From the NCBI GenBank assembly GCA_964016885.1, contig OZ024747.1, forward strand, positions 80,104,001 to 80,168,000: DNA of 64,000 bases. Reading direction: 5' to 3'. Below, in pieces: positions 3,487 through 45,634 of this stretch. The notes beneath the pieces were generated by a model that had not been told where the DNA came from, ran no database searches, and was given only the letters and a program-made list of their open reading frames with translations. Each line of letters begins with the position of its first letter. Positions within the stretch are counted from its first letter, which is position 1. The DNA is from Eledone cirrhosa (taxonomy: Eukaryota). Position numbers and translations under genes: made by a program.

Positions 3487-3675
3487 AGATGAGATTCTAC
3501 AGGACTAGAACTGTTTCATTCTTTAGAAATCATCAGGAATCTGATTCCTGATGATTTCTAAAGAATGAAACAGTTCTAGTCCTGTAGAATCTCATCTATA
3601 TTAAAACTTTTATACTCTGCAATGTATTGAGTACCTTACTTACTGTGGTTACCTCCGATTCAACCCGGAATAACG
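3484..3675 (+). mobile_element. Penelope-like pLTR-type foldback element in (TA)n
   Basis: Perfect 58-bp inverted arms 3484-3541/3543-3600 with a 1-nt loop, then a unique ~75-bp tail; TA repeats on both sides. Confidence 0.75.
3543..3591 (+). ncRNA. Type I hammerhead ribozyme
   Basis: gattc-CTGATGA-tttctaaagaat-GAAA-cag-ttctagtc-ctg-TA^gaatc. The core is intact, stems I, II and III pair, and the GUA cleavage site is after 3586. Confidence 0.8.
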
Positions 3676-4134
3676 TATATATATATATACGTGTGTATGT
3701 ATGTATACACATATATGTGTGTACCTCTCATTATGATATTGTCTCAAACTCCCACACGGTCGAGTTAACACGAAAGTATAGTAACTGCTTTTAAGCAAAC
3801 ACTATAACACTTTCAGTCCACCTTACCACCCGCCTCTAACCTCTCTATTATGTATTAATTTCTCCCTCCACCTTTTAAGATATTTTTCACTGCTATAAGG
3901 GATTCAGTCGCCTTTCTTGACCGGTGTATCACGTGGTAATTTTTCCCTCCGCCTTTGAAATTTTCTCACTTGCTGCTAACGTGTCTGGAAGACGGTCTCT
4001 CCCTGAGGAGTTCCTTGATAAGCTGGTGTGCCTCACAACGATATTACACATCTATAATGTGAAATTGTTGCAAACTGACCTGTGACACTCTATATTCGGG
4101 ACTTTGAAGGAAAAAATAGGTATATATCTGTTTC

Positions 4135-4236
4135 TCGAGGTTAACTTTGTCTTTCATCCTTATGGGGTCGATAAAATAAAGTACCAGTAATACACTGGGT
4201 AATTGCTGGCCTTGTGCCAAAAGTAGATACAATTAT
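4135..4236 (+). mobile_element. 5'-truncated tRNA-derived SINE (family A)
   Basis: Matches the 3' half of the copies at 12803 and 23700. Confidence 0.8.
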
Positions 4237-4341
4237 ATATATATATATATGTGTGAATGAAGTAATTCCGTCGGAAAAGTCCAGGAAAAAAGACTTTTTT
4301 TGTTTTTTAAGATCCAAATTCAATAAACAAACCAGGATTTT

Positions 4342-4399
4342 TTCATTCTGAGGATTGAAAGCAAAACCTTTTGCTTTTAAGAAACCACTGGTAAATGGA
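4342..4399 (+). ncRNA. Type I (minimal stem III) hammerhead ribozyme
   Basis: ttcatt-CTGAGGA-ttgaaagcaaaa cc ttttgcttttaa-GAAA-ccactgg-TA^aatgga. Long stem II; the host element 4255-4430 is flanked by TA/TAA repeats. Confidence 0.8.
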
Positions 4400-4874
4400 T
4401 TAATTGCCTTATGTTGTTTATTACATAATAATAATAATAATAATATATATATATATATATATATATATATATATATACATACATGCTTATATAGCTGTAG
4501 CATACTATAATGGTAGATGGCCCCTCCAGCCCTAAAAGATCACAGTCCTTAAATATTAATTTAAAAAAGTATTAATCTGAATAGCTTCGTAGACAAAATA
4601 ATATTTCACGTTCCGCTCCCTTCAATTTGTTTCTGTTACTCTTGTTCTCCACCTCCTCCATGTCCACATTACCCCCTCTCCTTCCCCTGTATATCCCCCT
4701 CCCCGTCTCTCACCGTCCTTCTCCCAGTGTTGTAATGAATGTCGACGTTTCTTCTCTACCGTTGTATTCAGTAGAGCTGGGAGATAATTTAAACTTACCA
4801 CTATCCAAGTATCGATTACTTCCTTCAAATTGATTCCAAATATAACCTCAACTTTGATTTAGTTATACAAAATT

Positions 4875-42111: not shown

Positions 42112-42575
42112 AAGGAGAATATTTATGCAGAACTGATGAGAAATCTGCAGATACTCCACCCTGATTACACCTTCAGATTTATACCTGTGATTATTGGTGC
42201 ACTGGGATATGTTACTAACTGCCTCAATACAAATCTTAAGAAGCTAGGCTTCACAGGAACAGAAAGAACACAACTAGTTAGGAAATTACAAGTACAATCC
42301 ATTAATGGAACAGTAAAATATGTAAAACATTCCAAAAATGTTGCATCTAATAACTGCATATACACATGTACAGATACAAAGCATATACACATGCACACAT
42401 ACAACTCAAAATATACACATCCACACATACAATAACATCCATATCTACACATGCATGCATACATATCTACCTAGTTGATGTTGTGTAAATTCCAATGAGA
42501 GAGTCTTGTGTCTATGTTAGAAACCGACTCTCTCTTTATTGGTAAAAAATTTGTGAAATTATAAAACCAGAAGAA
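42112..42575 (+). mobile_element. Diverged R4/Dong-like 3' fragment
   Basis: KENIYAELMRNLQILHPDYTFRFIPVIIGALGY is homologous to the C-terminus of the 42658 element; flanked by (TACA)n. Confidence 0.8.
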
Positions 42576-42657
42576 CATACATACATACATACATACATAC
42601 ATACATACATACATACATACATACATACATACATACATACATACATACATACAGACA

Positions 42658-45128
42658 TACTGGAGATCTGTATGGGAAACGGTTGACGGATTCAACAGAC
42701 AAACTAATTGGCTAAAAGAACTGGAACAGGACTACTGCCAACATGTCCAGACAAAACAATATGACATAGATGGGTTAATACTGGAAACAGCTCTACAGAA
42801 AATGTCGAATAGGAAATCGCCAGGCCCAGACCCCATTACAGGATACTGGTTGAAGAATTTCACTTTCTATCGGCAAGATCTCATACGGCTGTTTACAGAA
42901 ACCATTAAAGGCACACAAGAACTGCCCAGATGGTTATCAACTGCCACTACTCTCCTCATTCCCCAAAATAGCCAAACCACCCTTGCTAAAAATTACCGCC
43001 CAATAGCCTGCCAAAACATCATGTATAAATTATATACTGGGTGCCTTAACCTGTTCTTACAGGATCACTGTGCTACCAACAACATCATAACACCTGAGCA
43101 AGCTGGTGGAAAGAGGGAGGTGTGGGGTTGCATAGATCACCTACTAGCTAATAAAATGATTCAGGAAAAAACAACAAAGAATCGTAGAAACATGACTGTG
43201 GTGTGGCTGGACTATCAAAAAGCATTTGATAGTGTACGTCATGGGTGGATTATTAAGGCTTTACAGTTAGCCAAAGTCCTACAACCATTGGTAGCTGCTG
43301 TTGAACGTCTGACCAAGAACTGGTACACCAATTTGATCCTTAGAGGTGAGAAGGAGCAAGTTAAGACTGATAAGATACATTACCAGAAGGGCATCTTTCA
43401 GGGTGATAGCTTGTCAGTGCTACTCTTCGTTCTCTCACTAAATCCACTATCTTACCTACTCAGGAAACAAGGTGGACAAAGAAGTGGGTCCAGAAGTATC
43501 TCCCATCTTTTCTTTGTTGATGACCTGAAGTTGTATGGGCCAAATATCAATGACATCAAGAAACAATTGGACCTCATTACACAATTTTCAACAGACATCA
43601 AAATGAAATTTGGTGAGTCCAAGTGTGCATATTTGGCAGTAAAACGTGGAAGAGCTGTGCCCTCATCTAGAAATCTAGAGATGAACGGCCTGACAATACA
43701 ACCTCTACATTCAGGTGACAACTACAGATATCTTGGACAGGATGAGAATGTCAGATATGTTAGACCCATAGATAAGGAGAGAACCAGAACTGAATACCTC
43801 AGAAGAGTAAAGAAAATATGGTCATCAGAACTGTCAGGGTACAACAAATACATTGCCCACAATACTTATGCTGTGCCAATTCTAACGCCAACATTTGGCC
43901 TGCTGAACTGGTCATTGCAAGAACTAAGTGAGATGGATGTTAGAACTCGCAAACTTCTCAGTGTTACTAGGAACTTTAACATCAATGGTGATGTGGATAG
44001 GCTATACTTCTCACGCAAGGAAGGTGGCCGGATCCTAAAATCCATATTAACATCATATGAGACCCGGATAGTAACACTGAAGCAACACCTTCAACAGAGG
44101 AAAAAGGTTGGCAACCATCTTGCCAAGGTTTATGAGCATGAAAAATAAGTATCATTTGGATAGCCACTGATCTGGAGGAGAGATATGGAATAAAGCCTGA
44201 TATAAATCTCTCACCCAGAGAAATCGGAAGATCCTATTCAATGTCCAAACAAGATGAAAAAATTGACCAATTTACAGAAAAAGTTGTGCATGAATACTTA
44301 AGACGTAAAACACAGACCATAGAGGGGATAAACCACTCAAAAAGCCTGGCATGGAGTTCCGACAAGTTTATGACATCACACCTTGAGGGATATCTCTATG
44401 CAATACAGGAACAAAAACTCCCTAGCAAATATCTGCTGCACAAAAGAGGAGAGCCATCAGCTGACAATAAATGTAGGCTATGTAAAACAAAGATCGAGGA
44501 TGTAAGCCACATTGTTGCCACCTGCGAAAGAATGTCATCTCGCTACTACCTCCCCATGAGACACGATGGGATAGCTAGAACCATCTGGAACGCACTTCGG
44601 AAAACAAAATTAAGAACAAACGAGGAAGAATATATTGAGACAGATGGCACTAAGGAATACTGGTGGAACCTGAAAATAAAAACTGCCACCAAATTAAAGC
44701 ACAACCGGCCTGATATTGTTGGTTGGGACCACACATTGAAAACGTGTTCTGTTGTGGAGATCAGCTGCCCACTTGATGTAAATGTTATCAGAAAAATACA
44801 GGAGAAGGAGGACATCTTCGGACCATTGATGAGGAGTTTACAAATCCAGTATCCAAGATACACCTTTAGCTTCATACCCATCATTATTGGAGCTACGGGT
44901 TATATACCAACCCGCTTGGACCAAAGTATGACTTAACTTGGATTTGCGGACAAAGATGCGCAGCTCCCTAATTCATAGTCTACAAATGGCTGCGATAGCT
45001 GGCACCTACAAAATTTGCAAAACATTCTTGCGATTCAAGGGATGACAATTTCTTTTCTTTTACAACCTTGCCACCAGGAAGGTGACCGGCCCCCAAAAAT
45101 ATACTCGAAATTAAGAGAAAGAGATAAC
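42658..45128 (+). mobile_element. 5'-truncated R4/Dong-like non-LTR retrotransposon (RT, CCHC, restriction-like endonuclease)
   Basis: KSPGPD, YRPIAC, LDYQKAFDSV, GIFQGDSLS, LFFVDDLKLY, CRLC...HIVATC, RHD, RPDIV, VEISCP. Frameshift near 44145 and premature stop at 44936; (TACA)n on both flanks. Confidence 0.9.
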
Positions 45129-45587
45129 TCATATATGTACATACATACATACAATCAGACATACATACATACATATATACATACATACATACACATATAT
45201 GTACATACACACATACATACATACATACATACATACATACATACATACATACATACATGCATACATACATACACTCTTATTTACCTACCTAAGTGCCTCT
45301 ACCACACATATCTCTCTGCCACACTATATAAACAAGACGTACATGCGTGCCACACATATAACATTTGCACTATATAACCACTTATCTTCATGTTGTACTT
45401 TAACCTATATCTTTGATTTTTGATTGTACCTATTAATATAAATGTAATCTCGAAGTGTGTACTGCCACTCTAAATTCTGTAATGAATGTTGACCCACAAT
45501 GTTTGAATATGTATCAATGTTTGAATATGTGTTGGTATGTCTCTCGGCTGAAAAGGAGGTCATATAACTGTCCATGCATTAATAAAT

Positions 45588-45634
45588 TGCTCCGAAGAAT
45601 CCAAACCTCGGTTTGGAGGAAACAGCTGTAAGCA
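45588..45634 (+). ncRNA. Minimal hammerhead ribozyme with U4 changed to C
   Basis: tgct-CCGAAGA-a-tccaaacc tc ggtttgga-g-GAAA-cagctg-TA^agca; palindromic stem III. Confidence 0.7.

Follow-up and report, generated by a model that had tools for sequence, protein, structure and literature searches.

In this study, we analysed a 64,000-nucleotide stretch of the Eledone cirrhosa genome (assembly GCA_964016885.1, contig OZ024747.1, positions 80,104,001 to 80,168,000; hereafter the window, with positions counted from its first letter) for hammerhead ribozymes and the mobile elements that carry them. Very probably, its motifs are type-I hammerheads that belong to the terminal repeats of Hydra-clade Penelope-like elements (PLEs) and to non-coding derivatives of these, lying as 5'-truncated insertions in (TA)n; judging from sequence, the master copies would self-cleave a tandem precursor RNA, mostly as dimers and perhaps aided by protein. 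Nine hammerhead families occur in the window. Six of them (A, B, D, E, G and H) were tied to Hydra-clade PLE open reading frames (ORFs) elsewhere in the genome, families C and F are non-coding and retrozyme-like, and the family found at 26237 has no link to any ORF. The connection with PLEs and retrozymes had been anticipated by the original prediction, made from the letters alone, and it held: ORFs with a reverse transcriptase (RT) and a GIY-YIG-type endonuclease lie upstream of the six families.

The type-I descriptor comprised stem I of at least 4 bp, CYGANGA, stem II of at least 3 bp, GAAA, stem III of at least 3 bp and UH, and the window was also read directly. The strict scan gave seven matches (3543-3591, 3542-3492 on the minus strand, 4342-4399, 21948-22028, 32908-32972, its mirror 32769-32705, and 45588-45634), against a mean of 0.017 (maximum 1) in 60 dinucleotide shuffles of the whole window, none in 60 local 300-nt shuffles, none on the complemented sequence and none with any of four decoy cores. 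An eighth match, 7552-7625, was reached when stem II of at least 2 bp was allowed, and 6240-6313 failed through a mismatch in stem I. Three stems round a CUGANGA/GAAA/UH core, open at stem I, were present in families A, B, C (at 7552), D and F, and family E departs from this core at U4. The window motifs are confirmed as real hammerhead folds. Separately, the segment 25921-25981 combines both core boxes with a palindromic stem III; its stem I is out of register and it had no homolog in the gathered loci, and it was excluded from the count.

Chance matching in AT-rich, hairpin-rich DNA could appeal to the Rfam hammerhead models, which gave no match at gathering score in the whole window and none at E<=10 in 3000-8000, and to a scan allowing variant cores, which does produce false matches (7 on the complement vs 36 real). 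However, the strict-scan controls of the genome sample described below yielded 0-3 matches against 49-63 real ones, and the motifs are repeated across dispersed families, where they keep a fixed place close to the element ends and a conserved core. Chance is effectively refuted for the multi-copy families and may apply to singleton clusters. The Rfam models appear to cover long-stem-II PLE variants poorly; standard Rfam annotation missed every hammerhead in the window. Of the two kinds of scan that had been proposed as a check on the motifs, descriptor and covariance model, the former supported them and the latter found none.

All coordinates and cut sites of the complete folds in the original prediction (cuts after 3586, 4393, 7620, 32964 and 45630) agreed with our scan, apart from the stem I mismatch at 6240, and the CUGANGA core assigned to 45588 is actually CCGAAGA (U4C). 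The fold at 21948-22028, a separate family, and the minus-strand mirror 3542-3492 had been overlooked. Motifs described as degenerate or half were indeed incomplete copies, but of complete families with variant cores, namely U4A at 23530/33111 and U3-A8 at 34580/60357/3174; of the remaining two, 26237 proved to be mutated from G12 to C in a family that has an intact copy elsewhere, and 21101 to be an old copy of the 3543 family.

Family A lies at 3485-3675 as two arms. Its inverted arm (3485-3542, minus strand) has the short 3' end and a complete type-I fold with a predicted cut after 3498, and the direct arm (3543-3675, plus strand), a 5'-truncated Hydra-like PLE end in (TA)n, continues from the hammerhead (predicted cut after 3586) through a tail to the long 3' end; an old mirrored remnant of the same lineage, with an incomplete 5' core box, occupies 21081-21160. 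The family B stub (4249-4440, plus strand) opens with a short inverted tail piece, followed by the hammerhead 4342-4399 with its predicted cut after 4393. Family C (6218-7754, plus strand) is a non-coding partial tandem with a 1,312-nt unit and hammerheads at 6240-6313 and 7552-7625 (predicted cut after 7620 in the latter), and family F (21628-22281, plus strand) is a non-coding, retrozyme-like unit of 626 nt whose hammerhead has an 8-bp stem III and a predicted cut after 22022. Family D forms a head-to-head mirror (32572-33015) with hammerheads at 32769-32705 (minus strand, long end) and 32908-32972 (plus strand, short end, predicted cut after 32964). The family E stub (45273-45841, plus strand) retains the 3' end of a Hydra-like PLE that is young and autonomous, with a U4C hammerhead at 45588-45634 and a predicted cut after 45630. 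Family H is represented by a stub truncated at stem I with the core CAGAAGA (U4A; 23507-23585, minus strand) and by a 3' half (33111-33165, plus strand). Only 3' halves of family G occur, as mirrors at 34510-34700 and 60278-60452 and a stub at 3174-3230 (minus strand); full copies elsewhere have U3-A8 or C3-A8 cores. Finally, the copy at 26237-26289 (plus strand) belongs to a further family and carries G12 changed to C, with an intact relative in locus L196 (89.6% identity over 125 nt).

The tblastn search of the window found no PLE ORF, and the parent elements were identified in loci elsewhere. Family E provides the intact case. At L212 the element consists of an inverted truncated piece, a repeat with hammerhead, an 834-codon frame, a 1.4-kb untranslated region (UTR) and a second repeat with hammerhead, in (TA)n; together with L211, frames of 832-834 codons lie open between hammerhead repeats in 4.2-kb units flanked by (TA)n. 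The protein carries RWR, DKT, YRDD, CxCx5C and CxxC..E..N..CxH motifs and lacks CCHH, a set that fits the published definition of the Hydra clade (RWK-like, DKT, CxCX5C linker, no CCHH, CxxC and CxH around E and N, (TA)n targets; PMC8557442). It also keeps the GFK motif, which that source describes as not conserved in the clade. A YVG/YIG box could be aligned in its C-terminal endonuclease, its structural model (pLDDT 86.5) had telomerase RTs as its top three fold matches, and 293 relatives at E<=1e-10 were found among 7,998 candidates scored, the best named one being 38% identical and from Argonauta hians. Pfam and PDB sequence searches did not recognise this ORF; Pfam reported GIY-YIG for only 1 of 11 aligned proteins (E=0.012). 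Family E thus has, intact, the single ORF with telomerase-like RT and C-terminal GIY-YIG-type endonuclease of an endonuclease-bearing (EN+) PLE.

For the other families, related ORFs lie upstream in sense: in L261 on both arms for B, in L370 and L371 for D (frameshifted, with a common UTR 85% identical), at two loci with endonucleases 96% identical and at matching distance for A, in L064 and L074 for H, and in L278 for G. Family A candidates downstream of, or opposite to, A copies were treated as neighbours. The linker and endonuclease motifs of the Hydra clade were present in the A, B, D and H parents, and the ORFs of the A, B, D, G and H parents were partial or frameshifted. The structure expected of PLEs was found as well, that is, partial tandems, pseudo-long terminal repeats (pseudo-LTRs) with hammerheads, inverted 5'-truncated copies and a tail at one end. 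On these motifs, family E and its relatives probably belong to the Hydra clade. Families C and F, both partial tandems, have no frame over 100 and 78 codons, respectively. Family F repeats in 626-627-nt units, three of them in L217 (two with the fold intact and one with a mismatch in stem I), and its predicted circular fold is stable (z = -5.7). Non-coding tandem units with one type-I hammerhead each, as in non-LTR retrozymes, describe F and also C, of whose two window repeats one is intact.

Further hammerheads were observed around these elements. The terminal hammerhead region of family B is preceded, about 2.2 kb upstream, by an older, diverged duplicate of itself (L260:4530-4670). Another PLE, CCHH-type (Neptune-like) and represented by many intact frames of 775 codons (21,321 first-look candidates), ends in a U3-A8 hammerhead, seen downstream in 10 of 30 loci (L285, L290, L291, L299, L301, L302, L306-L309). 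A second PLE lineage, examined at 30 loci, had no downstream strict hammerhead of its own at any of them (0/30).

As to insertion anatomy, the (TA)n repeat follows the copy in 108/116 cases for A, 39/49 for C, 94/104 for D, 41/46 for E and 84/96 for G, and each of these families shows two distinct 3' ends beyond the cut site. Head-to-head pairs join a long with a short end in 97 of 106 cases (33/34 A, 7/8 C, 20/25 D, 9/9 E, 28/30 G), and the family G pairs were not preselected by any genome search. PAc, a Poseidon element of Anolis, has two internal RT start sites and two-strand extension (PMC11167929), and these would predict such long and short pairing. This two-end anatomy is the PLE 'tail', for which two internal RT start sites would account (PMC11167929). 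In addition, several families share a TTGAGTRC-like motif in their tails, at a distance of about 40-130 nt downstream of the cut (window 3610-3630, 7710-7725, 21670-21685 and 34640-34655, and many loci). It is a candidate RT binding or start signal, although the 18 of 43 clusters that a loose count gives also contain chance matches and matches from neighbours.

The mirrored stubs might instead be master elements themselves, spreading as units without ribozyme action in the manner of miniature inverted-repeat transposable element (MITE)-like hairpins. Nearly all of the 40 best family A matches have an inverted arm with a similar junction, and in the predicted read-through RNA of the A and D window mirrors the antisense arm beats the ribozyme fold by about 70-92 kcal/mol. 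The family A query spanned the junction, however, so that those matches were selected for it; unselected A and G copies have many different junctions, and the asymmetry of long and short ends fits de novo formation at insertion. We regard self-spreading hairpins as improbable. The mirrored A and D copies would be locked in hairpins and are predicted to be inert, and the folds at 3543 and 32908, for which cuts had been predicted, are not expected to form as ribozymes in read-through RNA.

With type-I hammerheads of Hydra-clade PLEs as the preferred reading, a partial-tandem master would be transcribed, and the hammerheads of two repeats would pair through their palindromic stem III and cut out unit-length RNA. 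The RT-endonuclease would bind downstream of the cut site, nick both (TA)n strands and prime at two internal sites, leaving either a head-to-head pair of one long and one short arm or a lone truncated stub. The ORF-less families C and F would borrow the PLE machinery, with circularisation in the manner of a retrozyme possible for F. The genomic copies, window mirrors included, are likely for the most part inert by-products.

Stem III pointed to dimers in particular. Its centre, left free by the descriptor, was fully Watson-Crick self-complementary in 21 of 29 clusters with even stems of 6 or 8 nt. For families B, C, D and E, the stem III hairpin was predicted to be unstable (+0.4 to +4.7 kcal/mol) and the self-duplex stable (-3.2 to -11.1), which suggests that stem III forms as a self-duplex rather than a hairpin. 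Family F has a stem III predicted to be stable in the monomer, and family A marginally so. Most motifs combine a short palindromic stem III with a stem II of 11-101 nt; the minimal, dimer-cleaving type that had been proposed therefore holds for stem III but not for stem II, nor for the monomer-stable stem III at 21948 and the marginal one at 3543. In several families (L082, L090, L067, L113, L213) the stem II region is about 80-100 nt or more, beyond usual search descriptors. By eye, the superfamily with TATATA/TGCGCA-type stem III (clusters F0, F4, F7, F10, F11, F15 and F35) shares a pyrimidine-pyrimidine mismatch at the fourth stem II pair, possibly a tertiary contact.

Core positions, not stems, are conserved among related copies, as the original prediction had expected. 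Copies were gathered by BLAST, not by motif, from about 1.9 Mb of loci (22-109 per family), and variants common to at least three copies affected 1 of 66 core sites vs 79 of 308 other sites (Fisher p=7e-7). By region, shared variants were found at 12/68 sites in stem I, 56/172 in stem II, 7/56 in stem III and 4/6 at N7, the sole free core position. Several families nevertheless have fixed variant cores. U4C at 45588 was considered as a copy-specific mutation, which was ruled out by its presence in 37 of 37 family E copies, and it was present in all 46 copies of a variant scan. U4A is present in 21 of 22 family H copies having an intact stem I and a closed stem III, and 19 family G copies reaching the core comprise 12 with U3-A8, 6 with C3-A8 and 1 with a deletion. 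Position 7 is A in both families with a fixed U4 change (E and H) and in two of four singletons (clusters 31, 33, 51 and 54), a possible coupling of positions 4 and 7.

These variants bear on the possibility that the hammerhead fold persists chiefly as a structural landmark, through protein binding or folding of the RT initiation region, with cleavage weak or dispensable for transposition. Family E was amplified recently (its 40 best matches are 99-100% identical) despite its fixed U4C, a change that strongly lowers hammerhead activity in vitro (PMC3088659), and the fixed U4A of family H points the same way. Catalysis is expected to suffer from the U4 changes and the C3-A8 mismatch, a pattern that fits selection for a property other than rapid cutting. 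In the PAc element, insertion in vitro persisted after mutation of the hammerhead, and RNA-seq gave no reads with ends at the cut site (PMC11167929), so that cleavage may be dispensable. On the other hand, conserved catalytic positions with unconserved stems and the compensatory U3-A8 change in several families are what selection for catalysis would produce; G never occurs at H17 either, though this is partly built into the descriptor. We consider the landmark explanation rather unlikely overall. The sole PLE hammerhead assayed with its own protein cut only when that protein was present (PMC11167929), so that the refuting condition set in the original prediction, absence of cleavage by monomers or dimers, asks too much.

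Several observations do count against cleaving type-I hammerheads of Hydra-clade PLEs as the general explanation. U4 is altered in two amplified families and a C3-A8 mismatch occurs in 6 copies of one subfamily, G10.1-C11.1 is found in only 9 of 43 clusters and U-U in 16 of 43, the PAc mutant results stand as given, and poor in vitro cutting has been reported for PLE hammerheads (PMC4209133). For none of the window motifs is the hammerhead predicted as the monomer of minimum energy; constrained to it, the fold lies 2.1-4.0 kcal/mol above the ensemble, and the predicted secondary fold of the family C unit is no better than that of shuffles (z = -0.9). In the conservation test, sites are non-independent and most copies are best matches to the window copy. 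Family B pairs were long and short in just 1 of 8 cases, with a query that ended before the B long end; the family G link consists of a single locus out of seven checked; and the clade assignment follows motifs, not a tree.

The 3' UTRs of the Hydra-type elements, about 1-2.6 kb long, hold TA/TG microsatellite mosaics of 1.5-2.5 kb (A parent, L372:1150-2001 and L348:726-1500; B, L260:4200-6750), so that the elements carry their own target repeat. On the sense strand, TG exceeds CA by 281:6 in A and 459:70 in B; D and E UTRs show no such bias, and a Neptune-like UTR is CA-rich (28:139). The family B UTR (L234:1280-1350 and other copies) also holds a captured piece of the family A tail with 6 A>G and 3 T>C changes and no reverse changes, from a comparison of 32 embedded with 63 other matches, as well as an inverted piece of the family A UTR with mixed changes (10 A>G, 9 A>T and others). 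One could imagine Hydra elements as a self-feeding genome engine that inserts in (TA)n and sows targets through the 1-2.5 kb of TA/TG repeat in its UTRs, in which the TG bias is the trace of A-to-I editing in (UA)n hairpins that reverse transcription has fixed and the U4A and U4C cores are working, protein-assisted ribozymes; taken as a whole, this scenario is a long shot. Its editing component is weak, with other families unbiased or opposite and T-to-C besides A-to-G in the captured piece. Its last component, U4A and U4C cores as protein-assisted ribozymes, has a little less than an even chance.

The window is ordinary for the E. cirrhosa genome. In 83 evenly spaced 10-kb stretches of large contigs (829,800 bases of a microsatellite-rich, 3.0-Gb assembly), we counted 49 strict hammerheads, or 59 per Mb (bootstrap 36-86), and 63, or 76 per Mb (51-105), at the loosest canonical setting; complement and shuffle controls are those quoted above. 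Extrapolation gives a genome total of about 177,000-227,000 motifs, with mirror arms counted separately. The window count of 7-8 is about twice the sample mean, a level that a 64-kb sample reaches with P = 0.15-0.20; the window was accordingly rejected as a hotspot, and the unusual density that had been attributed to it is not supported. The claim of at least five families at high density, in contrast, was exceeded: besides the nine in the window, clustering at 80% gave 22 clusters in the 830-kb sample and 43 in all loci gathered by then, 21 of these being singletons. First-look candidates, which are not copy numbers and of which the best 40 per family were scored, numbered 718 for A, 620 for B, 1,654 for C, 1,572 for D, 1,835 for E and 3,827 for F. 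A genome search with family G gave no candidates, probably owing to too-common words, and G was studied in loci gathered otherwise. The 3' halves of families H and G occurred 19 and 23 times in the 830-kb sample. Tandem, retrozyme-like hammerhead arrays were also seen, with a unit of 310 nt in five copies in L037 and of 557 nt in three copies at L220:340-1454, about 10 kb upstream of the window.

Beyond the hammerheads, the window carries other repeats. RT ORFs at 42565 and 55742 look like non-LTR long interspersed nuclear elements (LINEs): both match Pfam RVT_1, and Exo_endo_phos was additionally found at 55742 and zf-RVT at 44142. The LINE-like elements span 42565-44936 (plus strand; 42.5-44.9 kb) and 53992-59232 (plus strand; endonuclease and RT at 55.7-59.2 kb), and an inverted LINE-like fragment, 87% identical, lies at 18144-18983 (minus strand). 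Minisatellites occupy 51675-53678 (period 32, 63 copies) and 27332-27706 (period 13, 29 copies). An element repeated at 5670-5850, 23210-23400 and 23700-23890 resembles a short interspersed nuclear element (SINE). Repeat finders run on the window were dominated by microsatellites, and its miRNA-like Rfam matches are hairpins and microsatellites.

PLE hammerheads, dimers, opposite-strand pairs and retrozymes have already been published. The closest known system is the Hydra clade of C-terminal EN+ PLEs, including Hydra-1_Obim of Octopus bimaculoides (PMC8557442), which is alike in protein motifs, (TA)n targeting, pseudo-LTRs, inverted 5'-truncated copies, the one-end tail and a canonical hammerhead. 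The Hydra-1_Obim hammerhead is given in File S2 of that paper, and the stem III of family B differs from it by a single central base. The 4.2-kb unit of family E and the UTRs of about 1-2.6 kb compare with 'generally <3 kb' in the clade, and the tails of about 65-170 nt with 30-40 bp (PMC8557442). One octopus family is presented there, whereas E. cirrhosa has many very-high-copy families with family-fixed variant cores. In O. vulgaris, 31 recently active Penelope-like families have been described, with ribozymes unmentioned in the portions of that article consulted (PMC13282606).

Metazoan PLE hammerheads in general (Cervera and de la Pena 2014, PMC4209133) are likewise type I in terminal repeats, mostly dispersed single copies of truncated elements, with opposite-strand pairs 100-700 bp apart, palindromic stem III and the U3-A8 variant. 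In contrast, G10.1-C11.1 is highly conserved in that set, and stem II reaches 101 nt here. U4C and the U10.1-U11.1 mismatch have been published for non-PLE hammerheads (PMC3088659). A whole-word search found no paper on a U4A core, although figures were not covered and U4A may be in print; variant cores fixed across whole families were not found in the literature searched, whose supplements may list further core variants. Among animal non-LTR retrozymes (PMC7229834; bioRxiv 10.64898/2026.07.22.740005), non-coding head-to-tail units with one hammerhead each beside PLEs resemble F and C. Family F, like a retrozyme, is predicted to fold as a stable circle. Its 626 nt and the 1,312 nt of C compare with a usual 150-450 bp, and C exceeds the 972-bp maximum of the latter study (bioRxiv 10.64898/2026.07.22.740005). 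PAc (PMC11167929) shares internal RT initiation downstream of the hammerhead, two 3' ends and AT-rich targets; it belongs to another clade, and its start sites were equal between strands in vitro, vs the nearly always long and short head-to-head pairs here.

Schistosoma may have a comparable hammerhead density. In the literature searched, no genome-wide survey of octopus or cephalopod hammerheads and no numbers on the E. cirrhosa scale were found, although supplements may hold cephalopod counts. The estimated 180,000-230,000 copies stand against about 9,000 in Xenopus tropicalis and 4,000 in coelacanth, counted with different descriptors (PMC4209133), and would exceed the axolotl count, the largest published one found, at about 15 times the density (126,247 motifs in 28 Gb, about 4.5 per Mb, vs 59-76 per Mb; bioRxiv 10.64898/2026.07.22.740005). 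The role of the hammerhead in PLEs is called 'still unclear' (PMC8557442), and in vitro it was dispensable (PMC11167929). For this question the E. cirrhosa genome is a natural test set, with dozens of families, an intact young U4C element, an abundant U4A family and stems II up to about 100 nt. Compared with known systems, the pairing of hammerheads with PLEs is familiar, and what appears to be new is the scale and the family-fixed variant cores.

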